A stretch of DNA of 63,056 nt, counting the filler, from Platydemus manokwari (Eukaryota), in NCBI GenBank assembly GCA_037951405.1. It is 6 parts of 6 records of this genome, joined end to end, with 100 filler letters (N's around TTAATTAATTAA, not from the genome) between each part and the next. Parts side by side here need not be neighbours in the genome. Positions count along the whole stretch, not along the records: positions 9,105 to 22,699 come from JBBMOY011675846.1; 5 more parts are not named here. One strand, given 5' to 3'. The notes beneath the pieces are model-generated. The model was given only the letters and a program-made list of their open reading frames with translations. It had not been told where the DNA came from and ran no database searches. The translations under genes were made by a program, and so were the position numbers. Shown one piece after another: positions 6,201 to 42,179 of this stretch (its first letter is position 1; each line of letters opens with the position of its first letter).

Positions 6201-8023
6201 TTTGACTGTCTGTTTCGTTACATGAACCTGATCAAAATATATGACTGGGAACAATTTCTGCTGATTTAACGATCTGAATTGCTTCAATATGTATTTTTCG
6301 TTTTCTTTTTGTAATATAATCATTTTGTTTTCATAACAAATAGCCGCTCCTTCAATTTCCTCTCTCGTATACACAGAAGAACACTGAAATCAATAAGATA
6401 TCGTTCTTTATAATGACATAAACAATGCCGAATGAAACATTTACCGTATTTTTAGATTCATTGAATTGAAGCTGTCTTAGATTTGATATCACAATTAATT
6501 GGAAATCGATAAAATGATCTTTGAAAATGGTTTTCGGGAAATTGGTAATAAACTTCTGAGCAAATCATAATAAATATATAATAATTATTATTAAATTTAT
6601 TATGTAGGATTGGAACAAAAGTCTTGTCCGATCAAAAATAATATTTATTTAACCAATAAAAAAATATGTGACATGAGAAATATAAACAAAACATCATTCG
6701 TCTGTAAATCTGAAATGTTGAAAAATAATCACCTTGAACAGCCAAATTCTTTTGCCAGCGTTCCGAAAATTGTTTTATGGCTTGGTCATAGAATTCCGCA
6801 ATTATCGTTCATCTATTAAACGGAGTCATACGTTTTCCCACGAAGTGAGTTTTTCATAGGGGAAAATAGGTAAAAGTCTTAAGGGTCAATGTTTTGGGTG
6901 TATGATGAATGCGGTATAACAATAAAACCGATCTGAACAAGCTTATTTTCAGTCCAACGTTTCACATGCTGTCGAACGTTATCGTGAAAGAAATGGAACT
7001 TTTCAAAATTGTTTCCACACAACCAACGGCCTCTTTTCTCGAATCGCAGTAAATTTCTGCTTTATGTTTTCGTAGACACGGTACCAGTGCCAAATACGGA
7101 GGTAATCTTCTTCTCAATTTCTGTGGAATTCATTCCATCTTTACACTAAAAATACGTCAGCTTTTTCAAATCGCTTCGCTTAAACTCCATCATATGCCAC
7201 AAAATAATATTTTTTAAATGATAGCTATCTGAAACAATTATTTAATTATAAGATAGAAATTAAATATTTAAAAAAGAATTTAATAATGCATTTAAACAAA
7301 ACATTTCTTCATAAAACATTGAAATTTTTTAGATTTACAGATGATTGATGTTTTGTTTATATTTATCAATTTACATATTGTCTTTATTGGTTAAATAAAT
7401 ATTATTTCCTATCGGACAAGACTTTCGTCTCAATCATATAATAATGGAGTCAATATATGATTGAATCCATAGATCAGGAACAAATGGTGGCGGTTGTCAG
7501 ATATTCAAATCAACTAAGGAGTATTTATGTATTAACCATTTATTTATGGAGAAATTCGAAATTTCTTGTCACAGGTGTCACTTAATTGTAGAAAAGGAGG
7601 AAGTAGTGTGTTTATCGATGAACTAATTGCTGTAATCCTCATCGGCTCATTAGGCCAACACATGAACACGTATAAATAATTATTACAATCTATCGGAGTC
7701 TCAGAAGGTTTATTAATTTATTTTTGTACATTCATCTCATTGCTTTTCGAAAATGCTAAAAAAATTGATTTGAGTAAAACAAATCCTGCCTGTTAACTAA
7801 ATCCAACATCAACACGATAGAAAGGCTGATCGATTATATTAATCAATATTTCTTACTTCGAATTTATCATCGTTTTCCATTTCCCGATTTGATTTTGCGT
7901 ATTTCAAAGAACTTATCACGGATCCATTATTGATCAGTTTAACAAGCGGCATGCATCTTTCATCAATAAATCGAGGTAAATAGCTCAGCTTCAGTTGAAC
8001 CGATTTCCAAATCAATGCTTCAT
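284..8023 (-). CDS. 3' part of a multi-exon DH-PH Rho guanine nucleotide exchange factor-like gene (5' end not identified)
   Basis: Ten exons with GT-AG boundaries and matching phases: 7857-8023, 6445-6555, 6191-6383, 6065-6149, 1856-2016, 1727-1821, 1421-1480, 1142-1354, 470-512, 284-429 (TGA). The spliced protein includes ENKMIILQKENEKYILKQFRSLNQQKLFPVIYFDQVHV...FKLEKDRDMWFDHIVK, which resembles the PH domain of Lbc-family RhoGEFs (LLQKQD.K..L, PVI.L, terminal-helix Trp). Gene structure is well supported; family call is less certain. Confidence 0.65.
2180..2760 (+). mobile_element. Degenerate Tc1/mariner-superfamily transposase remnant in an intron
   Basis: Broken frame ...SFSLRNLSKNLNISK*SVHYILSTNTSLKCFHISLFQKLKEN resembles the second HTH and linker of Tc1/mariner transposases; many stops. 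Confidence 0.4.
3091..3363. repeat. Imperfect ~50 bp direct repeat pair
   Basis: tgattgatccatccaatgtttatgttaaaggtcaaat (from 3091) vs tgattgatccatacaatgtttatattaaaggtcaaat (from 3313). Confidence 0.75.
6603..7440 (-). mobile_element. Internally deleted mariner element with ~58 bp terminal inverted repeats, inside a RhoGEF intron
   Basis: TIRs at 6603-6660 and 7383-7440 share aaagtcttgtccgat and aaataatatttatttaaccaataaa. The minus strand gives MEFKRSDLKKLTYF*CKDGMNSTEIEKKI (N-terminal HTH) joined to HFFHDNVRQHV...IPHSSYTQNIDP*DFYLFSPMKNSLRGK, the degenerate HDNARPH / YSPDLAPSDFYLF mariner motifs. Confidence 0.9.
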
Positions 8024-9104: not shown

Positions 9105-10006
9105 TATGGAATTGTTTCATGAGCAATAGTGTATAAGAGATTTGTTGATAATATTGATTTTCAGAAATACCAATTGTCGTACATGATTACAATGGATGAG
9201 ACAGCTGTATTTATGGGACAAGATTCGCAGATAACAGTAGACATTCGTGGTGCATCATCAACAGGTTATGAAAACTAGAGGGTTGCCTGTATTCTTGCAC
9301 TTTGTTTGGATGGAGCAAAGCCAGCGCCTTTTATTATTATTAAAGAAAAGAAAAATAAAATTGAGCAGTTGGCTGGTGTGTACATTTTGGAAACAGAAAA
9401 GGCATGGAGTACCCAAGCAGTAATTAGAAAATGGATTGACCTAATGTTGAAAATAGTTTTATGAGGCAACAGAAGATGTTTACTTACTAATTATATGAAA
9501 AATTTTCTTTAAGCAAGAAGCGTTGATCAAATAATGAAACCGGCTGGCATGACAGGGTATCTTCAAAGTTCAAATTTGGTAATAAATAAGCCATTTAAGG
9601 ACAATATTAGTTTAGAAATCAATGAGTATATTGAGAAGAGAATTATAAGAAATGAAAAGGGAAACTTTGTAAAACCGAATCCACAAGTAATAGTCAAGCG
9701 GATTAGTTATACCTGTGCTAAAATTAATGATAACTGTGTCAAAAAAGCTTTGAATACTGCTTCATTGCAAAAAATGAAAGATTAAGACCACTTATCAAAG
9801 AAAAACTTAATTCACAGGAATTAATTGAGTGTTCAAAATCTTGTCGCAGGAGAGGACGACTTAACTGTGTTTGATTAAAATGCCTGTATCTTATTTAAAC
9901 CTTTGAAGTATTATAATAAAAATATTTTGATTTTTTTAATTAATCGGTATAAACCTTAACAATTTTATTATTTATAATTTATAGGGTCCGAATTTAATTC
10001 CGACAG
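9105..10006 (+). mobile_element. pogo-family (DDE_1) transposase pseudogene with probable right terminal repeat
   Basis: ITMDETAVFMG...RVACILALCLDGAKPAPFIIIK...KAWSTQAVIRKWI and MKPAGMTGYLQSSNLVINKPFKD match the pogo MDET, G.KLPP.II.K, AW and P.G.T..LQP.D..N.PFK motifs. Terminal-like gggtccgaatttaattccgacag-TA at ~9984-10008. Confidence 0.85.
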
Positions 10007-11544
10007 TAATGATAACATCAGTGAAGAGAATTGCAATGGTGATAAGAATGCGGATAAATCAATCTCCAAATGGATTGTGAGACAGCTATAATGAATTACA
10101 ATTTTCAAACGAAAATGAGATAACAAAGATAGTTTAGAAATGAACACCGAATTTAAAATAAATTTTTTTATAATTTTGAGTTATATTAAAATAAAATCGA
10201 AGGTTTGGCGTTATTGAATATCGAATAATAGACAAATAAAGGAAAGAGCTGTTGGTATATTAAAAATTAAAACTTGTTTATCATGGTTACGTTATTGAAA
10301 GATTAATTTTATTTGAAAAATTTCATTGAATTCTCTACTAGAGGAAAAATAAGGCAAATAAGAAACAATTGTTAGAATTGAAATGTATAACAAAATACAT
10401 TATAGTCAATAATAATTGACCTATAACAATGAAAAATATACCGGCACCTACTAGTTTAAAACTCAAGACAATTTATGAAAGATATACATTCACAAGAAAC
10501 AATTAAAGACGGAGTAATAAATATCCCGTAGTTAATAGAAGAGAAGGGGAAATAAATATTAATGAGTAGAAACATGAATATGGAAACTAAATGACAACAA
10601 ACACACCATGAAAAAGAGAAAGCTAGTATCCTAAATTAAACTAGTAATCCAGATCAGGGTAATTTTCTTTAAATAAATTTTTTATATCTTGATGATATTG
10701 CTTAATTAACGTCTTTGTTAAATATTATAAATTCAATGGATCGAGTTTTCATTGATTTATGAGAATATTTATATTCAATAAATATATTTATTTTAAAATA
10801 TGTTTTAATCTTTTATGTCGATGTATTTTATTTTATTTTTATCTATTCTTTAGAAAAATCATTATTAATATTATAAAGAAAAACACAACCAGCTACACAC
10901 AATTGATTTTTATTACTTGCTTTAATAACTAGGAATATTTGAACACCAATTTAGTAAAATTGTTCGGATTTTCTGATTGAATTTCAAAAATAAAATTGAT
11001 TAGTTTTTTACAAGTAAATTGATATAAATATTGAGGTAATTCGATTAAGATTCCAATTAATGGAACTTTGTGATCAAATGGGATACACTCATTACCGTGT
11101 TCAACAAGAAGAATAATCATAAAGCTAATCGATTTAAGACCAGGAAATTTGACAGCAGATTTTCGGGCCCTAATTAAAAGAAAATGGCGATAAACAAGAT
11201 ACCAGAATTTTAATAGTGCTTTACGAAACGAAGATCCCTTAAACATTACACACTTGATATTTGAATAACAACCAGAAACGATAGGGGAGGTTAGCCACTC
11301 TTTTCCTGTATTATACTAAAAGTAGATTTATTTGTACGTTCTGGGAGCTGTAAACGAGCAAAGTATTGTAAAAGTATTTACGAGAGTATTAATCGACCAG
11401 GAGTAGTCCCTCGGATAGAATCCTAAGTTTGAGCGCAGACGAGATTCGTTTCTTGATATACGAGTTTTCCATTGTTCATTGACTGTGAAAACGAATTCTT
11501 CTAATTCCAGAGAATTATTAAATAAATCTAAATATCCTAAGCCT

Positions 11545-12050
11545 GTACGTCTTTTATTTAATTTAAATAAAATACTAAAATTAGAATTATTTCCAAATGT
11601 AGTTTTTGTTAAATCAAACCAACTTGAGATGAATAAATTATATTACAATTAGTGTGCCTTCCTTTTTTTAATTAGCACTTATAATTTTTTTTCGTTTGTT
11701 ATGTAGCACAATCATCAAATATTATTAAATTCTTTTTAGATTGGTTTGGATCAAACAGACTAATAATTTAATCACAAATTTCTCTAATAACTAAAGTTTT
11801 TGTCAAATTTACCTTGTTCTTCACATATTTTGATTATACGTTCTTTTGATATGTCAATTTTAAAAGCATGATATAAAAGTTTAAATTCTTCTTGATAAAC
11901 CTCATGCAAAAATATTATTAAATTATTGTAATCTAAAAAATTTGCAGTTAATAACATTTTCAAAAGTAATCCAATTTTACCGCAACCCGAACTTCCAATA
12001 ATTAACATTCTGAAAGATGAAGGAACATTTCCGTTATTTTTAAATATCAT
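11545..12050 (-). pseudogene. Polinton/Maverick A32-like (FtsK-HerA) DNA packaging ATPase, frameshifted
   Basis: Walker A RMLIIGSSGCGK. After frameshifts: Walker B KKNLIIFDDC, KGRHTNCNIIYSSQ, and WFDLTKTTFGNNSNFSILFK, the conserved motif series of A32-type ATPases. Confidence 0.9.
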
Positions 12051-12369
12051 TTTATTTTGGTTCCAACCAAAGTCATTTTAAAAAGACTTTTTTATGCATA
12101 AAAATAACTTTAAAAGGAGCAATTATTTTTTTGAATGAAATTTCAAATTAAGAATATGAAACGTTCTAATATTATTTAGATAATATGAAATACGAATAAT
12201 AATATCTTAAAATGCTTTGATTATGAAGGAGGAGATATAATGGAGTTCCGTGCCGATTATGGGGTTCCTTAAAACAATCTTTAACGAAAAATAAGTTTTA
12301 AAATCAAATTTCTACTTGTTCTCATTCTGGAGAATTTCATTTTAAAAATATGAAGCCATTTTATAATAC

Positions 12370-12692
12370 TTATCCTTTTTTTATAATTTCATTGGGCGAA
12401 TATCGAATCTTCAATAACATTTACTAAATTATGATGAAATTCTAAATAATGATTATGGAAGATAAAATTTAAATATTTCACCTATTCCAAAAGAAAAACA
12501 TTTTCCAGTAATTGAATTGATGCAACTGCTATGCAACATGATGTCGATTTTATTTCAAAGGATTTACAAGATAGACATATTGCAGATTTAAAAATGAAAC
12601 AAAAAATGAATAATATTTCCCGTCTTACATTTAGACAAAAATTAGAGAAAATCATTAGTAAAGGTATTATAAAAGGAAAATAGTAATTGGGC
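12370..12692 (+). pseudogene. Parvovirus VP1u-like phospholipase A2 domain (PLA2X of Polintons/adintoviruses), degenerate
   Basis: YNFIGRISNLQ*HL...PIPKEKHFPV.IDATAMQHDVDFISKDLQDRHIADLKM...RQKLEKIISKGIIKGK**LG matches the Y..GP..L...P.N.LD.AA..HD..Y...R..AD pattern. Not in the ORF track because of stops and a frameshift. Confidence 0.8.
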
Positions 12693-12931
12693 AAAGATTG
12701 GAATATATAAGAAAAGCCAAAGATACTAAAAAATTATTGAGAATCCAGAAGATTTTAAAAAACAATCTAAATTATAGAATTAATATTAAAAGTATCATGA
12801 AAGGAAAGATCACTATCGGATAGAATTGGAATATGATAGAAAATCAAAAGATTTAGCTATTAAAAATATTCGAAAAATCGGAGGAAAAAGATACAAAATT
12901 AAATTATTCAAAATTACATGTTCCAACTAAA

Positions 12932-13600
12932 TTGGCATTACACCACGAAGGCTTATTAGGTCAAGAATTACACCATGATTATAAGAAAAATTTAGTTGTC
13001 AAGCCTAAAAAATCTAGTGATGGTCATAATTATGTTTTAATTGCTGTTGATTTATATACAGGATATGGTTGGTGGATTCCTTCAAAAGATAAAAAAAAAC
13101 AAGAGTTTAGTTGAAGTGTTTGAAAATTGTTTTGAGAAAGATTAAATAATTCCAAGATATATTTGGTTGGATAAAGAAGCTGGGATGACAAGTTAATTTT
13201 TTAAAACATCTTATGATGATAATTAAATTATTTTATGAACAAAAGAAAAGCAGAATTTCTTGATAGATTTATTAAAACTTTAAAAACCATTTTACAGCTG
13301 TTGGAAATCGATAATGGGTTAATAATTTATTAATAAATATAATAATAAAATTCATTCAAGTATTGGAGTGTGTTCTGTACAAGCTTAGAAAAATCCAGAA
13401 ATTGTTAGAGATTATAGAAAATCATAACAATTTTAATGATAATTCAAATAATATACAAACATTTAAAGTTTCGGATAAAGTTAGAATATTTAAATCTAAA
13501 AATAAATTTGATAAAGATATACAACACAAATTTGCAAAAGTTATATTTATTATTAAAGAGGTTTGTAAAACAAACATATAATTTATAAATGTTTAAAATA
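12932..13600 (+). pseudogene. Polinton/Maverick retroviral-like (rve) integrase, degenerate
   Basis: LGQELHHDYKK, GHNYVLIAVDLYTGYGWWIPSKDKK, PRYIWLDKEAG, DRFIKTLKT, YNNKIHSSIG and FKVSDKVRIFKSKNKFDK...IFII across frameshifts. Confidence 0.9.
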
Positions 13601-13907
13601 AAAGAATATTTGCTTGTGGAAAAGATGTAATATGGAAATATATTATTGAAGTGTTACCAAATTATGACTTTTGAATCCAAAATAAAAATGAAGAAGTGTT
13701 AGCAACTAACAAACATTATTATCATTGTCAACATTTGTCATGACGTAAAACTAAATGAAAATTACCAGATAAACATTTATTTTGAAAATATTTATAATTA
13801 CATGAAATATATGTCATTCGTTACCACTAATTTCTTGATTTGATCATGATTAAATATCTCAGGAAAATCAATAATTAGATCTTGACTAAATTGTTGGGAT
13901 AGCCCGC

Positions 13908-14110
13908 TACATAAAACTATATAAAAACATAAAACTATATAAAAACAAAAAACTATATAAAACCCCCTAAACTCCAAAACCATATAAAAAACTCCTTAAA
14001 CTCCCTATAAATAAACCTCATACAGATATCATGTCCTACAATAAATGCACGCTACATAGAATTAATATTTAAAAACTCCCTATAAATCACTAAATATATA
14101 CCTTAAAATA
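13908..14110. repeat. Short tandem repeats (aaaactatataaaaac), probably Polinton subterminal region
   Basis: Three near-identical ~18 bp units at 13913-13965, followed by aaactccctataaa variants. Confidence 0.7.
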
Positions 14111-14349
14111 TTTCCTGAAGTGTGGACTGATCTGCTGCAAGCCGTCAATAACAATCAACAATACAATCTCCGTCAACAGTATATTCTCCAAAATAAACAA
14201 TAAAACGGAGTTGATTATAACAATAAAGCTGATTTGATCTTTTGCTCTTAGTAGACTGTTGTGTGTTTTAATATTGTTTGTAACGCTTTTATTACTATGT
14301 TACGGGTATTTTATTAAGAGCCAAGGGCATTGAGCATATAATAATGTTA

Positions 14350-15355
14350 ATCTGAGTATTTGATCGATATAGGATGCATGCAGAATGAGTTAAGTATAAT
14401 TACTGACATAGATAATAAAGGATAAATGATGCCAAGGCCCGTCTCGCTATACCATCTAAATAACTTAACAGAACTGCAAGAAAGAGAAGTGCAACTTAAA
14501 CTACTGATTAACGAAACGCCTCTTTCAATAGCAGAAGAGCCTACAAGGATGGTCATAGAAGTAGGGGATCCCGACGACGTAATATTGGAAGAAATTCAAG
14601 AGGTGTAGAACCAGAAGAAATTCAAATCCAAGAAGAAAAAAAATTAGAAGAAAGTCAAGAGAAATTCGTCGAGTCACAGGAAGAGGGAGATTATGGGCAA
14701 TTAATCCCACCTGTCAGAAGACAATCAGAATTCGCAGTGCCTGAATGAAGAAGCCAATCAGCTAACCAAGCAAGGATAGAAGAATCTAGACCAAGACATT
14801 CATGACCTGGGAGACCAAGAAAGGATCAAATGACAAGGCACACGCTAAGTGCCACCACAAATGCAAAGATTAAAGCCAGAGCTTTAGAGTAGGTTGCACG
14901 GAATTTGATAGAGCCCACAGGGATTACGCATGAGGCATCTACACATGCAGAGGACATTTTATAGAAAGTTTTGAAACTGTTACATCCGGAATTAACCTCA
15001 CCAACAGATCTTTTGGATAATGAGTTATTAAGAAAACTGAGGACCGAATTGGTTAGAGTAGAAGCTCAAATTCAACATATCATATCAGATGAAAAGAAAG
15101 ATGACGAAGAAATCATCAGAAGCTTTGCTCAAGGAATAATGGGGCGTGAGAAAGATCAAATAACTATATGGGGTAACTACAAAGCATCCACAGAAATATC
15201 AAGAAACTCTAGGAAAAATGGCCACGTCGATGGAAAAGTATATCAAGCCATGGATGGATAGACATTTTGGATGGGAAGGACTGATCAGAGAGAAGAGCAA
15301 ACCCAAACCATCCAAAGTAAGAGAAGCACCGACTATAGAATTGGGATCACAGATG
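14350..15355 (+). pseudogene. Degenerate retroelement-like polyprotein segment (acidic low-complexity region, AT-hook, helical domain) running in frame into the glycoprotein
   Basis: Purine-rich, higher-GC segment with a continuous frame after two frameshifts: MPRPVSLYHLNN...EPEEIQIQEEKKLEES...PGRPRK...LLHPELTSPTDLLDNELLRKLR...KYIKPWMDRHFGWEGLIREK...ELGSQMTMIL. Confidence 0.6.
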
Positions 15356-16006
15356 ACTATGATATTATAAATAATAATCATTGTAATGAGTTTATTTAAT
15401 AGGACAGGAACTACGGCCATACGAGCATTCGATTGCGATAAATCCAAACTGGGAAAGATATATTCGTTAATGGATTTGGAAGAGTTTCCGGAGGCACTAC
15501 CGATGAAGATAAAAAAAACAAAAGTAATATACCACGTATATCAAGAGACTGGCTATGGAAGAGTGAAGGTAAGAGAATGTAGAGTAAAAAGGGCTAAATT
15601 CGAATAACATTGCGGATATCATAGCCACGCATCCATAGTCACTCCCGAAATGATAACCAGAGCCATAGAAATTCTCACAACAGCTTGCAACGATGCTTTT
15701 ACCACAAAGAAGTTAAGAATTGATGAGAAGACGACTCTCAAGGTAGAAAAAGGGGTAATAAATATAAAAAATCCTAATCGAAGGAGGAGAAATTAACGGT
15801 GATGGTCTATGTACTGAACGAACGGTCAAGTTACTGTCTATGATTGTGAAACCAAGTTGAGAGAAGTAGAAGTTTTTGATGAGAAATCAGAAGCCATGTT
15901 ATCACATCCAAACTGTACTACTAAAGTAACTAGCTGTTTCACCGGACAAGCAACTTTAGTATATGAGGTACGGCCAATGGAATGTCAATTAGCTTATATA
16001 AGCTGA
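15353..16006 (+). pseudogene. Chuvirus-like (Jingchuvirales-type, class III) envelope glycoprotein, N-terminal ~210 codons, truncated
   Basis: Signal peptide MTMIL*IIIIVMSLFNRTGTTA, then IRAFDCDKSKLGKIYSLMDLEE...VYQETGYGRVKVRECRVKRAKFE*HCGYHSHASIV...ACNDAF...GEINGDGLCT...NCTTKVTSCFTGQATLVYEVRPMEC. Motif order matches chuviral G (YDC..SL.D, CGMHSH.S.V, G..C, C.....C...T..W...C). Confidence 0.85.
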
Positions 16007-16249
16007 GTTGAATTTTTCCAAAACAAAAGGAGAAATAATTAAGAAATAATTAATCATAATATTATTTAAGTGAGACTAATTTAAACAAAAATTCAATTAA
16101 CAAGCCCGAAACCCACAATGTCAAAAAAGTTTTTTTATTTTTCAAAAAGGGGAATAATTCTAAGTTTTTATTTTTGTATTTTAAAAAAGGGGGGTATCTT
16201 TTTTTAATTTTTTGGGGGTGTGTGCTAAAATCACCTTTTCCCCACTACT
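16007..16249. mobile_element. Probable Polinton/Maverick terminal inverted repeat end
   Basis: AT-rich homopolymer-rich block ending ...ttttccccACTACT (reverse strand 5'-AGTAGTgggg), the typical Polinton terminus, with sharp compositional change on both sides. The partner end was not found. Confidence 0.6.
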
Positions 16250-17860
16250 TGTTTCGCCGACCTAACACAGCTGCCAAACGACCTCAAGTTTGGGACAAGA
16301 GTTACGCATGACCAGGGCAGTCATTATCTAAGTTGCCGGAAGATATCTTTTGGATAAAACAATTCCGCTCCAAGTGAGTGTATGGAAACGAACCCATGTT
16401 TACTTGCACACCACTACGGAGGCAGTATCAATATGAATGGTGGTGCGGACTAAATTATAGAATTGGCACCACACTACACCCTTGAAATCAAAAACTGTGA
16501 CCATAGATTGTGCAAAACCACCATAGAAACCTTTGCACTGAACACAACTCTGGTAATGGAAAGAGAAGAAGCAGAATACAAGTCCACCTTCATCGCTCCA
16601 ACAATCACGAAATGGGCACCACTCTCCCTAAAAGAAGTGTACCCGTACCACTCATTTATCTGCCAGAGGCTAAGTGTGACAGACATCAGAAATCAATTTC
16701 TCATTCTCAACACTCGAATGGTAGCCACAGCGGATATAACAATACAGAGGGAAACCGAAAACGCATTATTTGCCGTTACCATCATGGATTAAACCCATTA
16801 GACATTGGGAAAATACGGAGATGACAAAATTACTGAAAGAGATATAGTTGGCCAATGGGACGTGGTGCTGTGCAAAAACACGTTGAAAGAAGTTATGGAT
16901 GGAAAGATACTTGTAGGATTCATAAAAGCCGACTCACTAGAGGCCACAGGCATCCAACAAGAGAGGGTATTATGAATCAGAGACCTGGCTCGGGCAAAAT
17001 GTTTAAACGTCAAAGCGTTCATAGCCGCCTCGGCCTTCAAATGGAACTGGATTAAAAAGGCAACCATCCAATCCCAACTATATACCAGAAAGAGTGTCGG
17101 ACCGAGAATATATCTCAGAAATCAGACAAATTTATAGTCTTAGAGCCAACTTGGCAGGACCAGGTACAGATTGTAACTGATTCCGCCATGTAGATTGAAG
17201 AAACAGACGAGGAAATTGGACAGCTCGTAATTGATGAAGAGCTAACCGTACAGGCTATAAGCCAGAAAACCGAGAAAATGCTAATCGAAGTAAAACAGAA
17301 CAAGCAATTCATCAACGCAGATACCAAGCCACATCAGATCCAAATAATCACTAAGGAGCAAACAAGAGCAAACGAGAACGAAAAAACGAGCAGTATAGAA
17401 GAACCAAAGGAAAGAGCACAGAACCAAAGTAATAGCACAGTAATAATAGAAACTAGAGTACCATAAAGTGGACCTGGCCGCCGACCCAGTGGAACCAATC
17501 CTGGCACCGTCAGCCAGCGAAATCAGGTAAACCATCAAAAGCAGTAAAACCAGGCAAGGAACACCGGCGAACACACCTCAGAGTACACCTCAAATGTAAT
17601 CAAAGGTGAAAGTAAAAGATAAGCCAAGGGTCGAAGTAAAGAATTTTTCCAGGATCCCTAAAAAATTTAAGAATCTACCGCAGAAAATACCAGTACTGAA
17701 ACTAATAGACAAAGTCATTAAAGAAGATGACAACGAATAGCTCATCACAGCGGTGCAGTATACTAATAAACGCACAAAAGAGAAACTGTTCCTCAAGTAT
17801 GCAAACCCGATATTGTAATTCTAACCGAAGACAAGGACAGAACAAACCCAGTCAACTAGT
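16250..17860 (+). pseudogene. ~540-codon degenerate ORF of unknown function, probably the C-terminal part of a retroelement polyprotein
   Basis: One frame with isolated stops from CFADLTQLPNDLKFG...LAPHYTLEIKNCDHRLCK...GQWDVVLCKNTLKEVMDGKILVGFIK...FKWNWIKK, then an acidic/Pro-rich tail after frameshifts. Composition is similar to 14350-16006. Confidence 0.65.
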
Positions 17861-18193
17861 AGAAGTGATCCAATAGACAATTATTGTTATTCATCAAACT
17901 TTAATTATTATAAATTTTATCATACTTTGTGATCTTTATCAACCTTCTGACTCTTGTGCTATGTAAAGACTCTATATGTAAAAGTGTATGCCTGTAAATA
18001 ATTTTATAAATTTATGATAATCAGTAAATATGATAATCAGTATAATCAATCAAAGTATGTAAAGAGTTGTGTCCTACCGTCAAAAATCTTTAAATCTTGG
18101 CCGTCTAATTTCTAATCTTTAACCTGAAAATAATTATAATAATTAATAATCAACTCCAACGTACGCCCACAGGGAAAAAATACTATATATAAA

Positions 18194-21100
18194 TGGGCGA
18201 CGAAGGAGATTGGCCGGAAAAAATTTTCTCCAATCATCACGGATAATCTTCAAGGGAAAATTATCGTATCATCACTTCGTCATTTTTAAGCGAAAACTAT
18301 CGACAAATTCGCATATTCTCGATCGTTAGGATAAATCTTCAAGTGGAAATTATTGTCAAATCCTCATATTCTCGATCGTTAGGATAAATATTCTAAATCC
18401 TCGATTCATTGATTCGTTTTTAAACTTCGAGCGATATCAATTCAGCCTCTAAATTAAATTCCGAACAATATAATTATCATCAGGATTATTCTCACAAATG
18501 CATTCGGTAATTTTACTTATAATCTCTACATCTGTGTATAAAGGCGCAAGGGTTTGTACCCGGGAGCACTTTTAAATTATGAGATCTTGGTATAAAGGCG
18601 GAAGAATTTGTAGCCCTAAATTACTAAAATTAAATTCACGTCTCCTTTAGTTTATCATCCGAAGTAAAGCGGCACTTAGTTCCTTTCGTCGGTTTGTTTT
18701 AAACATCTTCAGGACGCAACACTGTTATCTGTCAAATTATTACATAACACATTTGTTAATTTTTATAATAGAATTGAATTATCATTTTGTTATTGGTTAT
18801 ATCATTAATATAGTTTTCAGTACTATTACACCTGAATTATTACACGCAACCCAATTACTGATTAAAGTCGGATTATTGGTGGAATCATCATTGTTCCGAT
18901 TCTAATAATCATTTGAATAGTGCATAGATAGTGCATAGAGTTTTACTAGTTGAATTAACTCTTATAATTAACTATTCACCAGATACTACTTAGTACAGGC
19001 TAGTAGGATTCCATCAGAGTAATTGATAAACATAAAGAAATAGTAAATGAGGAATGGAAAAAGACAAAAGAATACTAACAAATAATAAGAAGTGTAAGCA
19101 ATAAAATTAAGCGCGAAGAGTGGAAAAAATATTCAATGGGAAAATAACTTAGTGTAAACATAAATTAGAAATTAAATAACAAAAAGGAAGGAGTAATTTA
19201 ATAAAGGACGACACTAACTCAAACGATAAAGAAAACAGAAAAAGACATTAAAAACAAGAACAGCATGTATACTAAGTTTCGCCATTATAGTTACATAAAT
19301 AATATTAGCAGTCATAATAATGTATGAAAAGAAAGAAAAAGTCGATCTAGCAGCTATAAATATAAGACAAGTACCTAGAATAGCGACAATTATATAAGCT
19401 TTGTTAGTGATGTTCAACCATGTGAAAGTCCAGTGATGTATAAAAAAAAAAGATCAAAGTATACTCAAGATACGGACAGATTACATTAATTGATAATAAT
19501 GATAAAGAACAGTTTACTGTGCAATTATTGAATGAAACGAATGTTAGAGGACATGTTTGGAGAAAATAGAGTGCACGAAAGTGTAAAGGGAGAGAAAAGT
19601 ATGTATAATTTGAATTGCGGTGTAATTTACCAATTAATAATAAGAAAGGGTAAAAGTAAGAAAACAATGATAGTTCAAAGACCTGAAATGCCAAGGAAAG
19701 TGTTTGTTGAGATATTTTTAAATAAGTGCAAATAAAATGGGAAGATTTGAATTGTATGAATGTAAGAATGCATGTAAACAAATATCAATACATGATAAAT
19801 TCAATAGAGAGAACAATGACCCAAGAAATAAAAGAGGATCAGTTAGTCCAAATAAATATCTGGTATTACATGAAAAGTAACCCGATAATGATAATACATC
19901 GAGAACAAATAATCATACAGTCTAAAATCTTGATAAAAATACAATTAAATCGATGGTCATAACAAAAGAAAATAGAACAGAAGTTGAGTAAGAAATTACG
20001 AGCATTATGCTTAAAGGAAAAACATCAATGAATATAGAGAATAAAAAAACATTAGGAACAATAATTTAAAGAGTAACAATTACAAGCGTGACCACTATGG
20101 AGTTGATGATTCTGAGTTATAAGGTCTATAGGATCACCATAGATGTGTCATTAAGGCTTGACAATTACAGGACAAGATGTTGTATATTGATAAAACATAT
20201 AGATAAAACTGTAACATAACAATATTATAGTCGTATGCTATAGAAATAGAGTCTGTATGAATATATCTAGTAGCAACAAATTTGGTATGAATGAAATTGC
20301 TAATAAAAATAGAGTAAATTGGAAAACAATTGATGTAAATAAAAATAATATAGGAAAAATTCTAAATATTAAATATTCTTTAAATATTCGGAATATGGTA
20401 GAAAATCTGTAAATAATTCGGTAGAAAATGAATCTGTAAATAAAAATAATTTAGTCAGCAAAAAACCATTTAATTTTTTACCCAGTATAAAGTCGGATAA
20501 ATTAAATAAACATTCGTTGGCAAAAAATAATTCGCCAACCAATCAGAATAATGAGAAAAGTCGCAACCAATGAAAATTCAACCGTAAAATCATATAAAAA
20601 CTCGAAACACCCTTTTAAAACTGTCACTTGTCAAATTTGCTCGGAAACAAGTAAGTTATAATTCGTTGATAACTTGTATTTGACCATAATGTTGGGAAAG
20701 TGCTTCCAATGCCCCAAGCACCTCCTATAATATAGCCACAAATGCCCATAGCACCTCGAATAATGAGAAGTTAATACTAGACGAGAATGAAGATAGGATA
20801 AATGGGATAAGCCCGAAAAAGTCGATCGGAGCGAGCCTAAAGAAACAGTAAAAACAGAACCGATGACCTCAGAAGATCCAAGAACGGAAAACTCAAGATG
20901 GTGGGAGATGCAAAAGCGAGTAGATATGGGCGAGGAATATGACCTCGGATATCTATAAAAATTACATTATCTATAACATTTTATGATTATAAACATGTCT
21001 ATAATCTTTGAATTTTAATTTCTAAGTGAAAAACTAAAAATATTTTAAATTTCTAAAGCGAATTTTCCACTTCTAAAGTAGTATAAATAGGCACCAAAAA

Positions 21101-22699
21101 TCATTAATTTTCGCACATAAAAATATCTACTGGAAAAGTTAAAATCTTGAAGACAAGTCTACGAAAAACTGCCTACGATATCATTTTTAAAAAGAATAGT
21201 TAATAGATTGAGAAAACTTTATAGAAAGAAACTCGAACATCTGCGACAATTCTGGATATTGCATAAACAAGGCTTAACAGCAAGGTGCGCAGAGTGAAGA
21301 AACCTAATTGAAGTTAATATTTTAAAATTTATAAATTTAAAATCTAGTATTTATAAGGCCGTTTCGTCAAATTCGAATCGGCCATTCCCAAACCATAAAT
21401 TGATTGAGTTAATTTTCGCGTCTGTTTGGAAATAAATAAAATTGATTGTTGTGCCGGTATATTAATTAAATAAATCAATTATCTGTTAATTGTAATTTGT
21501 ATAAAACTTGTATTTGTAAAAGTTTCAATAGAGGACTATTCTCATAAAATCATCTTACATTTTTGATTTATTATTTTATTAATAGTTTCGTTTTATAAAG
21601 ATATTCATATGGTAAACAATTGTTGTAAGTTATGGTATTGTTTAAATAGACTGATATTCAAGAAGGTTGATTTGAATTTAAATTAGATCAACTTTAATGA
21701 ACTCACTTGTGTTGGGAATACTAACTAATAAGACTAAAACCCAACAGTAATTAAGAAAATAATGAAGGAAATAAACCGCGGTATTATTCGTTACTACCCA
21801 AGAAGATTTTATCATGCATATTAAGGCCAAGAAGTATTACAAGGGAACATCTCACTGCTTCTAAGGAACTGTAAGCACTTTATATTGTTGCAACACTTTC
21901 AATTAGTAATAGTAATTCATTTTTAATCTTAATATTTAATTGCGCAGCAACAACCCTATTGAGTTGTTCTGGTGTTTAAATTATTAAACTACAAAAGTAT
22001 TTTTAACCTTTTGTTATATACTCACAATACACTCTAGTCTGAACCCGGTTCAACTAGAGCCAAACTCTATTAAAATCTAAAATCATAAAACAAATTCGGT
22101 CCAAGAGGTTACGGTGCCAAGTAGGCCTAACCTCCAATAATCTTTCAAATTTACGGCTCTTACCGGGAAACCTAAGAGACTATACAAAAATCATCCGCTC
22201 TATCGATATAGGGCCAGTAACTTTTCTACTTAAGCGCAAACTTATAAAAACAGGCCTGGTTATTCGTTTAAAACATCATTATTTTGAAATTTTATTCACT
22301 GATAATTCTGTTAACTATTATTGTTTGAAACTTTATTTACTAATTGTATTATATTGTATTCTATATTCCAATATATATTTACAAACAAAATTAGTTTTAA
22401 CCATTAATTATCATCAGTATAGTTATAATACACTGCACCTTTGGAGTCAGGTGATACGAAAAATAATAAGCTATATTTAGAATACGCAAGTTGGGATAGA
22501 ACTATTTATTAAACTAAGCAATAACAATCAACTGTTGGGAAAGCGCCTCTAACACCCCAAATACATCTCACTATGCACCACCTAATGCCCCAACAACAGC
22601 CACAAATGCAAGTGAGAGAATAGAATTGGATCAGGATGGCAACTGGGATGGAACGGTTTATCGTGGGGATAAGCCCGAGAAGGTTGGCCGGAAGGAACC
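18194..22699 (+). mobile_element. Putative polypurine tract and long LTR-like region
   Basis: gggcgacgaaggagat followed by TGgccgg (~18211) downstream of the ORF and an AT-rich UTR. Internal direct repeats catattctcgatcgttaggataaat (18313, 18365), two TATAAAggcg boxes (~18537, ~18592), and a segment similar to 40520-40620. Confidence 0.4.
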
Positions 22700-23587: not shown

Positions 23588-25392
23588 ATGTCGAAAATCT
23601 TTCGAGCTAAATTATAAAGATTTAAATAAATTGGTAATTAAAGATAAAAGTATCCCGGTAAGCTCTAAGAAAATTAAAAATGTTAAACATGCATTATTAA
23701 TTAATTTCTTGTTTAGTCTTGTGGCTTTCTCTGTGAAGGTTATCGTTACTGTTGAAAACCAGGAACTAATTCCAGAACAAATAATGGATTCATTTATTAA
23801 TGCGATTGAGGAAGTTGCTGGATCTGAAATAAATTCATCATCAGTCACAGATGTTGAAGAATCTAATGATAAACTCACAAATTGGATTAATTCCAATAAG
23901 AGGCATAAAATTTATCATTATTTTGATGATTTTCTCTTTGGGTATTGATTTATTTTTTAAAAAATAACTTGACTTAAAGCTACTATAAATGTTCTCAGTG
24001 CTTTATATGCTCGGAAAAAATTCAAAAATCAATGTAAGATATTTGGAAAGACATTGAAAATTCTTTCCAGAAATTCTGTTATCGATTCTTTATTGAAATC
24101 AGTGAGTTTTTTCTTTTTGTGATTTTATATTAGTTGTCCGTTAATTAATCAATTAAAATCTTATTTTAGAGTCATTCGGTTGTGAGTTTTGGATGTGGAC
24201 CTGGCCCAGAAATTGTGGCATATATTAATTGCATTCGTAATGTTTTGAAATGCGATAATTTACCATTGGATATATTGGCAGTTGACAGATTAAAATATTG
24301 GGGGAAATATATTTCGAAGCTAAATGAGATTTCAGATTCTAATACAACAATTCGATTTGAAGTAGTTTATATTACTTGGATAAGAAATATTGTTTTTATC
24401 AGTAGTATGAAACCAATATTAATAATAATTATATTAATTATATCATAAGTGGATTTAATTTAATTTTGCATTACTTGACAATAGGGAGTATTTTGTATTT
24501 CAGTTTGATTTATTAACTCATTTATTTGCCATTTGCAGTTATATAAATGGAAATGCTGATACTGAACTCAAATAGAAAAATAACATGTTTCCATGGTTAC
24601 TGATTGACTGACATTGCAGATATAAATGAACATATTTAAGATTCCTAAACAGATCTATTAACGTATTATTTGTTGGAACTGAGTCATAATTTATTGATTC
24701 AATCCATAAATCTTTAAATCGATATTCATCGTCATCTGGCATTGATAATATTTTATCGGTATTAAAACAATCAAATAATTATAAATCAGTTACAATTAAT
24801 TAATTTGTACAAAATCAGTCGACAACATTTAAGTGAGTCATAATGAGATGTGCTGTAAATGTTAAATTGAGATATTAATGTGATGAGCTCAAAATAATCT
24901 TTATGTTTATTTTTGTTTGAATGAATATTGTGTGGATTGATTCTATTATCTTGTTTTTATTTAAATTTGATTTCGAATGAGCCACAATAGCCCAATATTT
25001 TATAAATAATATTTTAAATGACAACTTTATCAATTAAGGAAGGAGATCTTTGTGAAACATTTCTGCTAAATATGTCAATCGATGCCGATGTGTGCATTAT
25101 GTTATTCCCTCATTCGATGAATTTCTCGAATATCTGCGATCTGATGACAATGAGATTTGATTTGATAATACTTGTTGATAATTTGAGTCGTGAAAGAGAT
25201 TCGATGATGATAAGTTATGGTTTTCAAAAAGAAAGTTTACAAGGGATCGGGATTTATTATTATTTGAAGGATAGATTTTCTGGCTTGGAAAGCATTAGAT
25301 ATCAAGAAAAAGATGATAACGTTTTTTCTCTTAACACCTATTTTGATGATGAGGTTCATGATTATAGTGATTTCTTTAATGATGCTATTTAA
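23588..25392 (+). pseudogene. Intron-containing class I SAM-dependent methyltransferase-like gene, possibly disrupted
   Basis: Exons near 23588-23657, 23718-23941, 23980-24101, 24170-24361 and 25018-25392. Motif I SHSVVSFGCGPGPEIVAY, motif II ILAVDRLKYW, then ADVCIMLF. Apparent 1-nt frameshift just after the ATG and no clean AG before the last exon. Confidence 0.6.
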
Positions 25393-27237
25393 TTTACAAA
25401 GCGTGTTTTAAAACTAATGTTATCTCATATAATATCAATGATTATTTCAGGCTTCGATGTATTTCTTTTTCATTGATTTTGTGAAAAATATTTTGTTAAA
25501 TATTATTTTATGGGGATGAAATTGTTGATTCTTATAATGTTTATGATGGACCTTTAGATCAAAGCAATAGCAACTGGGTAAGAAAGTATTTCAGCTGTAT
25601 TTAGTCAAGTTAAAAGAATTTATTTGATTTCAAGTGATGTACGTGAATATAAACAAAATAGAATTAATATATTAGGTCATCCGAAAAGTAATGTCCGTTT
25701 TGACAATTTCAAATTTTGATTGATATATTATCAATCAATAGGATATCCAATCTAATTTTCGTCATATCTATCGATCGTAGTATTTGTGGAGTGTAATTTT
25801 GTTGAATAATATAATAAATAAATAGAATAAATAACTTGACCTAAGTAAATTATAAATAAGATGACAATAAGAACTGCTTAATACCCGAAAATAAAATCGT
25901 AAAATAAAATGATATTACTATAGACGAGAATTTGAGAAAATAACTAGCCGTGCAATACTTTTAGATTTTCAATTGTTCAGTTTTTGTAAGATTTTTTGAC
26001 CTCTTATACCGGTACCTGCCAGTGCTCTCAGTTGATTTTATCGATTTTAATTTTAAGATCTTAGATTTTTAATTTGGGTCTTAGGTGAATGAGATTCGGA
26101 TCAGAACTTTTATTTTGAAATATAGATCAAATATGATTTTAACGTAATTACAATCACTTGATCGACGCGTACACGTTAATATCCATTTCGTACTCAGATA
26201 ATAATATATAATATTTCTTTGAGGGAAGGTATTCTTCAATAATAAATAGCATAGTTTGTAGAAACTGCGTTGATGAATGTGAACCGTGAATTGATATTAA
26301 TCCATGAACTTATCTTGTTCACTATTGGACTCGTTAAAATCTATAGCATATAACCAAACTATTTTAGAAGATGATAGCCACAAGGGTAATGGTAAAATTC
26401 ACCAATTATAACTAGGCCAAAATAGAAATTTATTTATTTGCATTTAATTATATCTAGTAGACGACTAAATTTAGAATGAAATTGTGTCTTTTATACTTTC
26501 TAATATGGTCATTTATAACTTAGTTCAAACCAAATAAAATTCAATTATATTACACCAAGAAAATACCATTTTTATTGAACATGTTTCTTTTAATTGGAGA
26601 TAAAATCTTTTTTTAATTTATTTTTATGAAGTGATATCACATATTACATATGATATTACATATTAGCCACACATAAAATATTTTAATAAACAAATCGCTG
26701 ACAGTTTAATTTCTTCGGCACTTTAATAATCTCTTTCCACGTGGTGTAGGATAAATGAAACTATTTTTTATGTATGACCATCAATTCCATATGAGAACAA
26801 TCGTTCGTATACTCATTAATATCTGTCAATTAATATAATCAATTGGAAACCTGCTAATATCTTTGAAACAGTTTGCTATTTGGTATACTGATAATATGTT
26901 CCACTTGATTTACGTGTCTTGCTTAGATTGGATAGATATGACATTCTTTGTAAGTGGTCACGTGAAAAAGATTGAAGTTGAAATAATTCAAAATGAAATC
27001 ATTTATGGTTTTGAAGCAATTTTTAATGAGATATTTAGTTAATAAAATACCTCATACATTATTTATTGATGTCATGACGCATCCGATGAAAATAATAAAT
27101 ATTGGAGATTTTCCAGTTTATGATCTGCATCACTATGTAAGATGTATGATAACACTGAACGCTTTTAATAAAAATATAACAACAACCCACCTGTAAACTT
27201 TATTTATGATGAGGACTTCATGATTTTTATTATTAAA

Positions 27238-28810
27238 GACAGATTAGCATATTGGGGGAAATATATTTCCAAGCTGAATGAGATTTCAGATTCTAATATA
27301 TCAATTCAATTCAAAGTATTTTATACTACTCGAAATACAAATATTGTTTGTATAAGTAGTATTAAATCAATAATAAATATTATATAAATAATATCATAAA
27401 TGACATTTCAAATGACAACTTTATCGATTAAGGAAGGAGATCTTTGTGAAACATTTCTGCCAAATATGTCAAATGATGCTGATGTTTGCATCATGTTATT
27501 CCCTTATTCGATGAATTTCTCGAATATCTGGGATCTGCTGACAAAGAGATTTAATTTGATAATATTGATTGATAATTTGATACGGGAAAGAGATTCGATG
27601 ATGTTAAGTTATGGTTTTGGAAAAGAAAGTTTACATGGGATGGGGATTTATTATTATTTGAAGGATGAATTTTGTGTCTTTGAAGCACAGGGTGGTTTCG
27701 GTTTTGAATTTGATTCTAAAATCGATTCTGATTATAATATCTTATAATATCGATGATGTCAATATTTGTGATACAATTATTAATTCTGATTTCATATATT
27801 TGGTTGTGATCAATTGTTTTGTTGAGTTATTTTAGATACTAGTTATTGATTTTTCATGTTGATTAGTTGAGTAAAAATAAAATTAGTTTCATTGATGTAT
27901 TATGTTTTCTAAAAGTATTCCAGAAACACAAATCGATTGAATAATAAAACATGTTCCACACAACCAAACATATTTCAACAATTTTTTTGGAATAATTATT
28001 GTTAAAAATTCCAAGATGTAAAACTAGATTGATTTATTGATTTTAATTAAATTATGAATGAAAATAAGATAACAAGGCTGATAGCTCCTGAATAGGTTAT
28101 CTGTTTGAAAATTTCTCTATTTTTGTGCTAATGAAATGTGTTTTAAAACTAATGTTATCTTTGTCTAAAATCAATTCCTATTTCTTTTTCATTTATTTTG
28201 TTCAAAATATTTCGTTAAATATTATTTTAAGGGGATAAAATTGTTGAATTCTATAAGGTTTATGGTGTACCTGTAGATGAAAGCAATAGCAACTGGGTAA
28301 TGGAACCCAGTATTTCGGCTCTATTTAGTCAAGTTAAAAGAATTTATTTAATTTCAAAAGCTGTTATGAACGAAATAGAATTAATAATCAATAATTTGAT
28401 CTAAGTAATTTATGAATAAGATGGCAATAGAACTGATTAATACGAGAAAATAAAATCGTAAAATAAAATGATATTACTATGTACGAGAATTTGAGAAAAT
28501 AACTAGCTGTGCAATACTTTCAGCTATTGTAAGATTTTTTGATCACTTATACCAGTACCTACCAATGCCCTCGATTGATTTTATCGATGGTTAGGCCTAA
28601 TGGCATTGTAGAATTATTTTGATTTTAAGATCATAGATATTAATTTGGGTCCAAGGTGAATGAGATTAGAATTAGAACTTTCATATTGAAATATATATCA
28701 AATGCGATTTTAACATAATTATCATCACTTGATCGATGAGCACACGACAATATCCATTTCGCACTCAGATGATAATATAAAATATTTCTTTGATGGAAGG
28801 TATTGTTCAA
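27238..28810 (+). pseudogene. Partial tandem duplicate of the methyltransferase-like locus
   Basis: gacagatta..atattgggggaaatatatttc.aagct.aatgagatttcagattctaat and MTTLSIKEGDLCETFL are repeated, and 28135-28810 closely matches 25400-26240. The motif I exon is absent. Confidence 0.85.
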
Positions 28811-31794
28811 TAACGAATAACATAACTTTTCTTGTGCTGTGAAAAGTTGAATGATAAACTGAAATTGTTTTCTGAAAACTCTGTTCTGCTTGAATCTATT
28901 TCTGAGGTTCGGTTCTGAAATTATGGCCCTGTTGAAATACAAATTCCTCGAAATTCTCGCGAAAATTATGGCAGTCAGCAACTGAAAGCCTTCTTTTTTA
29001 TACTGCATCACTGTGCAGTGTACCAATTAGCCACCATCTCGAGCTGGTTAACCACCAATTCCATGAATTGATGTTGTTCTGTCCTAAAATCGGTCGAAAT
29101 CATTTCGCCGATTGACTATCTTCCAGTGAAGCCAAAGTTCAATTTCCCACCACCTACACTTTTTGGTACTTTGGCCCTGATAATATGCTGAATTTACGAG
29201 AATTTCCGACCTGGGAAATTGATTTCTATTTTATTTAAATAATTCAGTTAAACAAACTGAATTATTTAATAATTTATTTTATTCATTATTTTTTAAAAAT
29301 AATTATACTTAAATACATATTCTTTAGAAAGAAATAATTTTATTTTAATAACCATTATTCTATTTTAGTTTTATTGATATATTTTCACATTTAGATCATT
29401 TCAATTCAAACTCCTTTAATCCTTTTGTTTAAATCAATCAATTTCTGTTATTTCTTTTCATTAATTATATTTAATTGGTGCGCTCTTCATTATTATTTTA
29501 ACTATATATAAATAATAATTATTATAAATATCAATATTTCAATCTGGTATTTTCTCAAAAATTCCAAAGATTGTCAAAATATAAAAAATACATATTGATT
29601 AAATAAAAAATTAATACAATAAAAATTAATACCCATTTTATACGTACTGCCATGCAAATGTATATAATATTTTTCTATGTGAATTAATTGTTGTAAGTAA
29701 CTTGTTGGGTCAGAACCCCAATAAATAAATTAGAGATCAACACAATGTTAACTAATTATTGCAGAATTTCAATCGGCATTCCGCCAAATTAGAAAACCTG
29801 GTAAACCGGAAGAGAGAAGATCAAGATTCTATATGACTAGTATTGCTCTGGAAGATAAATTGTAATTAAAGTCAAGCATATTTACCAAATTAAACAATAA
29901 GATACATTATTGTAAAATTATCAATAATTTATATCGTCGAATATTGTTCTCAATCTATAAAGCAATGCTTATTCTCGTGAACTATATTTCTCACGATTTA
30001 CTTATTTATCTGTGAAATGTTACAGCAAATTTTCATTGTAAATGCTTATCAAAACTAGATTATTAACAAGTTTTATTTTGGAATATTTAAAACAATAAAC
30101 TTTTTATTAAAATCAAATGTTCAGTTTTGTATTTGCCAGGGGTCTTTAAAGTTCATAACGTCACTTTGGTAATTATCATTCATCATCTTTTAAAAATTGG
30201 TCAATGATGAAATGATTGTACAGGCTTGATATGAACATCAACGAGAATATGTATCAAGAATAATTCAATTGTGTTTTACAAAGTACCAAACTTAAGAATA
30301 ATAAAATACTATCGTACTCCGTTTATCTTGTCCCCATAGAAGTGATTAAACGATTGTGACGAAGGAACGCCTATGATAATATTAAATTACTACCCGATGG
30401 TCATTAGAAATCAAAAGACTGGTATAAATAGTTAATATTGAAAGAACTTGAGTAAAGAAGTAACATTTCAGATTATAAATGTATTCTACAGTAGTTGTAA
30501 TAGATAACATTTGTACTAATACAATTTGATAAATTATTGCATCGTTAAGTTTGCGATGTTTAATCATTTTTACGACAAATTTAAGAATTTAAATGAGCTC
30601 TGTGGAAATAAATTAATTGTCGCAATTTAAAACATGCTGATGAAATATGATTGCTATCGATTTTAATTAAAAATCCGACTCTAATAGATGTAATTACTTT
30701 AGTAGTTATAAGACTTTTTAAATGACAAACATTAGTACTAAAATATAATTAATGAATCAAGGTAAATTAAATATGATCCAATATATCAGATGAAAATCTG
30801 ATTCAAAATAATAATTGACAATTAAAAATTTACGAATAATCAGGGTTAGTTAAATTCAAAAATATTGTTGCTGTAGAAGTCCAAAGTTTCGTAAGGCATT
30901 TTCTTTGATTGTCTTCTATGCTTTTAGCCGTAAGAGCCCTGTCTGTCACTACAGGCTTACTGATAGTTGAGACAAAAATTCAAGCAACCACTCCTTAAAT
31001 TTCAACTTATACTGTTGTTTATAAATTACTTATCAATTGAACTGGGTTCAAGTCAGGAATTTATTAAAATAATTTTCGAATACAATTGTTGAGGATGCAC
31101 CATTTCAATTCACATCCAATTCTACAAACACATCCAACACCCATCCAATTCTAATTCCAACGATATCAACAATAAACTTTTTCTTAATCAACTATACTCT
31201 TATTACAATCAATTATCAACAAACTTTATGTTTAATCAATTTTTGCACAATCCTAACAACACAAACAACACATCAGTCCCAATTCATTAATCAAATCAAA
31301 TATCTCAAGTTTCAATCAAAATCTAAAACCTCAATTCAAATCTGAAATTCCAATCCAAATAACAATCCCAACTCTTCAATCAACAATCGAGTTCAAACCC
31401 GAGCGCCCATCACCGACTTTGACTCCTATTTACCGACTTCGAATTCCATTCAATTCCATTTACCGACTTCAAGTTCCATTCATCAATATTAAACTTTTAA
31501 CTGATATTTGATTTGATTTAATTTGACTAACATTTTAATTAATTTTTGAACTCTTAAAATATCTTTACTTTGCTTAAAAATTATCTTTGATTGTGAAATA
31601 ATCATCTTTTAATTTGTAAACCGGAAGATAACGGTTATAGAGAACGACACATGGTTGAGCAATGTTAATTAAAAATTAAATAAGAGCAAAATCACAATAG
31701 CAATAATAGCGAATAATAAGAAATCAAGCACAGCAATTTTATATATTAATATAAGAAAGAAAGAATAAGAATAGTAAATTATGTTGAATAATAA

Positions 31795-35859: not shown

Positions 35860-36450
35860 ACATATATTCAACTTTTATAGACTTGTAGTATGTGTTTATC
35901 TTCTGCCTTACAGCTTTACTTTGGTTAAACCCGTCTACATATTAGTTTATATGTAGATTTTTTTATAACTCTCGTGCTGCTGGCTAATCTAGTTGTTTGT
36001 TGCCTGTTGTTGGTGTGCAAAATTTTATGATCGGCTTTTGTGGATTGATATTTTTGAGACATCTGACTGTTTATTGACATCGAACCTTTTCAGAGTTACT
36101 CAGAGGTATTCGGAAGTATTATGATTTCTTTTGTTACACTATCAACATAATTATGAAGTTTACTTGTACAGCAAAAATGACAAGTATTTGTCTTTCGTCA
36201 AACTTCTGAACATTAGGTGCTGCTTTTACGATTAAACATAAAAGTAAAGCTATCCTGCATTATTTTCGGATAATCTGCAAAGTTTGTAAATATAACTAAT
36301 TGATTCTGCTAACTTAGAATCTTGTGAAATTTCGATAATGATAAGTTTTGTGCTTGAATAATTTAACCATCTTGTTTTATCAATTTGTTGTCCTCTTGTA
36401 GTTGTACAGTTTAGAGAATTTTGTATGCTCATTTTCACAATAACGCGTTT
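35860..36450 (-). mobile_element. Degenerate retroelement fragment, possibly Penelope-like
   Basis: DKTRWLNYSSTKLIIIE resembles the Penelope N-terminal W..N.S...L...E motif. The reverse strand of 35880-36020 (gcacaccaacaacaggcaac...cacgagagtt...agacgg) recurs at 42300-42460. Confidence 0.35.
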
Positions 36451-39355: not shown

Positions 39356-39369
39356 AAAGCTTTATTATT

Positions 39370-39779
39370 TTAATAAACATGAACCATTCCATAAATAAAT
39401 GTCCAAAACAATATGTATGTTGTTAGCTCGCCGAAAATTCCATGTGTTAGCAAAGGTGATCTCGATAAGAAATAATTATTCCAGTTTCTTCCAGCTTTTA
39501 TCATCAATAATATTGACATGAACCCACTAGCAACAACATAAAATACAAACCCTAAAAGACCTGAATAACAAAAAATATTAGCTTTGATCTAAATGTTATT
39601 TAACCTGTTAATCCAAGAATACCAGCAGTCGTTCCTGAGATAGCCGCCATTGCGGATCGACAGTATGATATAACTACTGAATTGTTTTGTGTGGACAAAG
39701 GATTATATGCCACATTGTAAAATTCTTCGTCGATTTTGGGAACGGTTCCCATTTCAAAAGCACTAAAGGGACTTGCCAT
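39370..39779 (-). CDS. EMC6: ER membrane protein complex subunit 6, two exons (39605-39779, 39370-39560)
   Basis: Spliced protein MASPFSAF...[42 protein letters not shown]...[10 protein letters not shown]...[16 protein letters not shown], with the EMC6 signature C-terminus. 44-nt GT-AG intron; missed by the ORF track. Confidence 0.96.
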
Positions 39780-42176: not shown

Positions 42177-42179
42177 GAT

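Follow-up and report, generated by a model that had tools for sequence, protein, structure and literature searches.

The subject of this report is a stretch of 63,056 nucleotides from the flatworm Platydemus manokwari (assembly GCA_037951405.1), hereafter the window, in which a piece of a chuvirus-like class III envelope glycoprotein (env) lies between genes of a Polinton (Maverick) and a block resembling a Polinton end. Our analysis indicates that this arrangement is probably a dead composite formed at a single locus, in which a broken Polinton holds an internal piece of a retroelement similar to Burro, a giant (over 25 kb) gypsy-type LTR retrotransposon of dugesiid planarians. The locus is contained in one gap-free contig (JBBMOY011675846.1, positions 9105-22699 of the window; neighbouring contigs of ~10 kb are separated by 100-base linkers), and the gene order proposed in a previous, sequence-only reading was confirmed on it: a packaging ATPase (-), PLA2 and integrase (+), tandem repeats, the glycoprotein piece (+) and a block ending in ACTACT at 16249. 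Decayed elements form a patchwork along this contig; all the genes at the locus are broken, and the longest open reading frame (ORF) within the region does not exceed 130 amino acids. The GC content of the window is ~27%; along the contig it changes from 0.23 in the Polinton genes to 0.39 in the retroelement piece and to 0.25 after it. The single-locus reading rests on the retroelement context of the env relatives, the Burro order kept in the window, the truncation of env, the decay of the locus and this contrast in GC.

The env piece (15350-16031, +) represents the N-terminal 37% of the protein and contains stops, frame breaks and an internal deletion near 15829. It matched PF24664 at 15371-15750 (E 1.9e-16), and a profile of its relatives aligned through positions 9-245 of 658 at 15350-16028 (independent E-value, iE, 2e-57). 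Six stops interrupt the main frame, and the sequence lost near 15829 is kept in other copies. The piece corresponds approximately to residues 131-372 of a natural relative, P0006, whose structural model shows a long helix at 444-491 and a C-terminal helix at 667-720; the trimer helix and the membrane anchor are missing from the window copy, which has lost ~63% of env. Since env is truncated and carries stops, no working fusogen is possible, and judged on its sequence the piece is a passenger incapable of fusogen action. It does not represent a complete stand-alone class III fusogen with an anchor, of the type of the nematode MFUS-1.

The class III assignment of the glycoprotein was upheld, as the P0006 model (pLDDT 69.5) resembles herpesvirus gB (E 2e-12 against that of HSV-1) and chuvirus G (E 5e-38 against that of Tacheng tick virus 4), with TM-scores that were low across the matches (0.2-0.46). 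This likeness indicates that the env family has a class III fold, the model being that of P0006 and the window piece being known by its sequence. An alignment of env against PDB sequences gave no match, no env-related loci were found in metagenome, viral or genome contigs, and the window piece fell in no supported group of a tree of 20 env pieces that omitted 27 shorter matches.

The profile search identified 48 env relatives, and the domains of 15 of the longer ones plus two cluster members were scanned (P0021 and P0049 fall in one cluster; P0048, with Sel1/TPR repeats, was removed as spurious, and P0010 and P0011, shorter than 700 amino acids, look like gene-calling chimeras). Nine of the 11 env-bearing relatives of at least 700 amino acids carry a retroviral protease, zf-CCHC or reverse transcriptase (RT)/RNase H/integrase in the same ORF; of the remaining two, one showed only Bcl-2 and the other only env, and Polinton domains were detected in none of the 11. 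A full protease-RT-RNase H-integrase series with env upstream was present in P0024, P0029, P0038 and P0049. The published description of Burro, on which our comparison rests rather than on named Burro sequences, places Ubi2/SUMO and BCL2 domains upstream and env before the protease, reports thousands of copies in Schmidtea, and likens the Burro env to gypsy env and to mononegavirus fusion proteins (PMC6431247). Env upstream of protease, RT, RNase H and integrase is a Burro trait predicted in the relatives, the window being devoid of the pol part. Its predicted domains and those of its relatives identify the glycoprotein as a broken internal segment of a gypsy polyprotein resembling that of Burro.

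Some of these relatives had additional characteristics. P0029 (HBK71150.1) bears the label of a Flavobacteriaceae metagenome-assembled genome, yet it is a Burro-like env-protease-RT-RNase H-integrase polyprotein and is likely a eukaryotic contamination of that genome. P0049, P0008 and P0024 are Burro-like polyproteins with several aspartic-protease-like repeats and long post-integrase tails ending in hydrophobic segments; in P0049 (4844 amino acids) we counted six aspartic-protease-like stretches, together with ankyrin and C2H2 fingers.

The nearest protein, P0001, has a match of 200 residues upstream of the glycoprotein, which implies that the glycoprotein belongs to a longer ORF. P0001 also aligns at 14956-15295 (+), an interval predicted to encode a BCL2-like domain in two frames, with profile iE values of 0.015 and 4e-7 that are partly circular. 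Pfam Bcl-2 had no direct match in the window; in six relatives it was found directly upstream of env, below the curated cut-off. The presence of a BCL2-like domain directly before env, also a Burro trait, is thus predicted for the window. Further upstream, a profile built from relatives only suggests that 14108-14420 (+) is likely a degraded ubiquitin/SUMO-like domain, a label taken from PMC6431247, as far as its layout is described there, and from inspection of the alignment, not from Pfam. On both strands, the best match of this profile ended at 14404 (column 86 of 89) with a score of 25.4 versus 18.8 for the next one; a longer profile gave 25.4 versus only 24.7, and hmmsearch an iE of 1.9. 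The window therefore appears to retain the Burro order of ubiquitin-like, BCL2-like and env, the first of them probably.

At the left of the locus, an A32-like packaging ATPase is predicted at 11460-12077 (-); it is frameshifted, ~20 residues short of its end, and matched Pox_A32 with an E of 6e-4. Its homology covers columns 10-228 of the 248 of the profile and stops near 11460, and not at 11545 as had been proposed. We found nine relatives of this ATPase (47-57% identity, PF04665 in 9/9), and their alignment used as a query retrieved 18 metagenome loci of 1-5.7 kb each; viral contigs gave no ATPase match. Other Polinton genes accompany the related ATPases, namely a double jelly-roll capsid in locus L007 and a protein-primed polymerase (pPolB) in L012. 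The ATPase frame continues into a low-copy open frame of 128 amino acids (10929-11460, -) without a family match; this frame marks the left break of the Polinton, which one contig bridges with 0 differences. No left terminus was found on the contig beyond the ATPase.

The PLA2 and integrase genes of the sequence-only reading are both present, but as pieces of one fused ORF. The region 12513-13575 (+) is homologous to a PLA2-integrase fusion ORF of Polinton type, broken in the window, which in locus L001 carries PF08398 and rve (rve E 1.5e-11); four pieces matched the L001 ORF of 456 amino acids, with iE values of 3e-9, 7e-8, 9e-6 and 7e-11. In L001 the fusion ORF is intact (296-1609, 438 amino acids) and has ~30-bp tandem repeats upstream. 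The PLA2 piece gave no match to PDB sequences, and using 101 ORFs from the 18 related loci as queries we matched no pPolB, capsids or protease in the window. The homology of the ATPase and of the PLA2-integrase pieces led us to regard the left part of the locus as a broken fragment of Polinton type, for which an A32-like packaging ATPase and an rve integrase, the latter in a broken gene, are both predicted.

On the right, the boundary between env and the terminal block had been placed at 16006/16007, and this proved wrong. A C-x-L-(9-13)-G spacing present in 13 of 15 relatives spans a frame break near 16020 and reaches ~16031, and contigs of other copies aligned across 16020 with a summed depth of 920. 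Depth is given here as the sum over matching contigs of one run, probably the source of the window itself, and is not a copy number (single-copy contigs show 8-17); no RNA run matching the stretch was listed. As env homology continues to ~16031, the terminal block, previously given as 243 bp, comprises at most 218 bp (16032-16249). This multi-copy block is likely a Polinton right end. The motif ACTACT is not rare in the window (12 occurrences on the + strand, plus 18 of AGTAGT), and its position at 16249 was taken as a terminus because depth drops there from 1061 inside the block to 61 past it, with bins set to break at that point. In other contigs the block shows length variants at 16150-16213, and (ACT)2 is described as the commonest 3' end of vertebrate Mavericks (PMC8097293). 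No terminal pattern of this kind was found in viral contigs.

The left end and 6-bp target-site duplication that the sequence-only reading had called for were not found on the contig, nor was a partner end for the terminus at 16249. Two candidates were discarded: AGTAGT at 11402 has only those six bases in common with the right end and its flanking 6-mers differ, and each of the CTGA motifs at 14115 and 16004 is embedded in sequence that extends beyond it, either as homology or in other copies. Likewise, the retroelement-like sequence that had been reported outside the terminus could not be confirmed, as no match to 16250-17900 was obtained with Pfam, PDB, NCBIfam, a protein search or a gypsy-integrase profile; a gypsy integrase core starting at 16250 scored 27.8, below background peaks of 31-38. 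This flank (16250-18200, +; GC 0.42) consists of a low-copy, A-rich, coding-like repeat with depths of 39-68, followed at ~17950-18200 by a block of higher copy number (depth 350), possibly a long terminal repeat (LTR).

At the left of the retroelement piece, an AT-rich stretch at 13590-13890 is probably still Polinton, with a GC of 0.23 as in the Polinton genes; depth falls from 1348 at 13577-13819 to 182 at 13820-14062, the lowest of the interval, and the junction is likely to lie at ~13820-13900. It had been located at ~14110; this position is not a unique junction, since 13 contigs from other copies (summed depth 667) cross 14099, the best of them having 35 letters to its end, and a further contig joins 14089 to 14177. 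These contigs connect the A/C-rich tandem repeats at 13907-14100 (+; detected by TRF, with an 18-bp unit repeated three times at 13909-13962) with sequence to the right of 14110. These repeats could be part of the retroelement, 18 bp being whole codons, of the Polinton, or of a copied composite, and their description as subterminal was unsupported. As a possible LTR start, TGTTGGG at 13892 had no support, given that the window contains 13 occurrences of this motif and that no similarity to the block at 17850-18320 was found.

How the two elements came together can be considered in the light of these boundaries. We propose that a ~2.1-kb piece of a Burro-like polyprotein would have come to lie in one Polinton copy, after which both decayed. 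The absence of a recognisable LTR at either end points either to a full retroelement insertion that subsequent deletions shortened from left and right, or to the patching of a chromosome break by retroelement complementary DNA in one step, a process reportedly known from work on yeast Ty1. Of the two possibilities left by the sequence-only reading, a Maverick with a fusogen or a nested insertion, nesting plus deletion fits best; a working retroelement-derived fusogen does not stand for this copy, as env is truncated.

Several observations weigh against this proposal. An insertion origin requires two deletions to lose both LTRs; no contig among the pieces listed bridges either junction; and the piece occupies the position of the 2-5 kb, high-GC cargo of nematode Mavericks as described in the Widen preprint. 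In addition, summed depth is equal on env (~1050) and on the terminal block, and many contigs cross 14110, tying the repeats to the retroelement piece, as would also be expected of a composite that had been copied.

These same data are the ones that favor another explanation, which we consider rather unlikely: that the Burro piece was taken up by a Polinton as cargo, in the slot from integrase to terminus, and that this Polinton then multiplied into a subfamily numbering tens of copies, some of which might have a longer or complete env. The piece has no LTR at either end, its position, size and higher GC (0.39 vs 0.23) agree with the nematode cargo slot, and nematode cargo proteins are said in the Widen preprint to start often with ubiquitin-like domains. 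Depth stays flat between env and the terminal block, and the 13 contigs over 14099 have a summed depth far above that of single-copy contigs; both observations are also consistent with such copying. However, abundant ordinary Burro copies owning the repeats would give equal depths as well, all the long env relatives are retroelement polyproteins, and other copies retain, near 15829, env sequence that is absent from the window copy. Moreover, env was found in 0/18 of the related Polinton loci, none of which includes the interval from integrase to terminus.

It is quite unlikely, in our opinion, that the left Polinton genes and the right ACTACT end derive from different copies or elements joined by deletions, so that env was never inside one Polinton. 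The lack of a left end, an inverted partner or a target-site duplication on the contig would agree with this, as would the gene order: in L001 and L016 the ATPase is downstream of the integrase on the same strand, whereas in the window it is upstream on the opposite strand, and the tandem repeats of L001 lie upstream of the integrase. On the other hand, a Polinton-type end in the correct orientation 2.7 kb from the integrase is most simply explained by one element, and Maverick gene order is described as variable (PMC8097293). An assembly chimera of high-copy repeats, suggested by the short contigs and by junctions between multi-copy repeats for which a bridge is absent among the pieces listed, is very improbable, given that at least five contig pieces are identical to the window over 463-1202 bases and that the joined parts, having no similarity to each other, gave the assembler little reason to join them.

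The proposed single-locus composite of a Polinton and a Burro-like piece shares traits with several known systems. As in Burro/GYPSM1, env follows a BCL2-like and probably a Ubi2/SUMO-like domain in frame in a polyprotein, precedes protease(s), RT, RNase H and integrase in the relatives, and is related to fusion proteins of negative-strand RNA viruses; in contrast, the window holds a 2-kb broken internal piece with no gag, pol or recognisable LTR. Anakin, a mosquito Pao element, also combines a chuvirus-like glycoprotein with an LTR retrotransposon and has many solo or defective copies (PMC7642597), whereas the relatives found here have Pfam domains of gypsy type and env upstream of the protease. 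The A32-like ATPase, rve integrase, PLA2 and candidate (ACT)2 end are those of Polintons and adintoviruses with a PLA2-like gene (PMC8502044, PMC8097293). In the accessible descriptions of these the gene is PLA2X, with the adintovirus PLA2 fused to pX and no mention of a fusion to integrase, while here it is fused to integrase as in L001; pPolB, capsids, protease and a left end are absent from the window contig. With respect to the nematode Mavericks with MFUS-1/PC1 (10.1101/2022.07.12.499685, 10.1101/2023.08.22.554363), the class III gB-like fold is shared, and so is a foreign segment of higher GC in the interval from integrase to terminus. As described there, MFUS-1 is instead a stand-alone gene of 866 amino acids that has a signal peptide and a membrane anchor and is conserved among copies, with a median identity of 85% in C. 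briggsae, unlike the cut and decayed env of the window. We found no paper describing a Burro env inside a Polinton, in a search that reached few subscription journals.

Other features were observed in the window. On the same contig, a decayed DDE_1 (pogo-like) transposase gave a weak Pfam match at 9117-9788 (+; E 0.013), and two related segments at 20690 and 22533 (+), each preceded by unrelated sequence, start at one and the same short motif (local score 31 versus a shuffled mean of 17.5) and are possibly ends of another element. The only long ORF of the window, at 50255-51712 (-), is an open and apparently intronless frame of 485 amino acids similar to GH20 beta-hexosaminidases (E 8e-79). 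A tandem segmental duplication of ~2.5 kb (24284-28824, 78-89% identity) contains two related ORFs of 115-124 amino acids, and the inverted-repeat pairs at 6597-7444 (120 bp, 85%) and 35868-42464 (~220 bp, 72%) are possibly ends of non-autonomous DNA transposons.

As we read it, the locus is an ordinary case of nested, decayed transposons whose two partners are of known kinds. It illustrates that a class III env of Burro type can land at the cargo position of nematode Mavericks, and the modeling now places the Burro-type env family among gB-like class III proteins, closest to chuvirus G. The accounts of the nematode Maverick fusogen that we consulted do not name its donor, and if the junction were multi-copy, the locus would offer a traceable donor for the capture of a fusogen by Mavericks. 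It is unlikely that a flatworm Polinton subfamily took the ubiquitin-like/BCL2-like/env cassette from Burro into its cargo slot and spread; if true, this would represent a second, independent route to a Maverick class III fusogen, and the genome would still harbor the retroelement that acted as donor.

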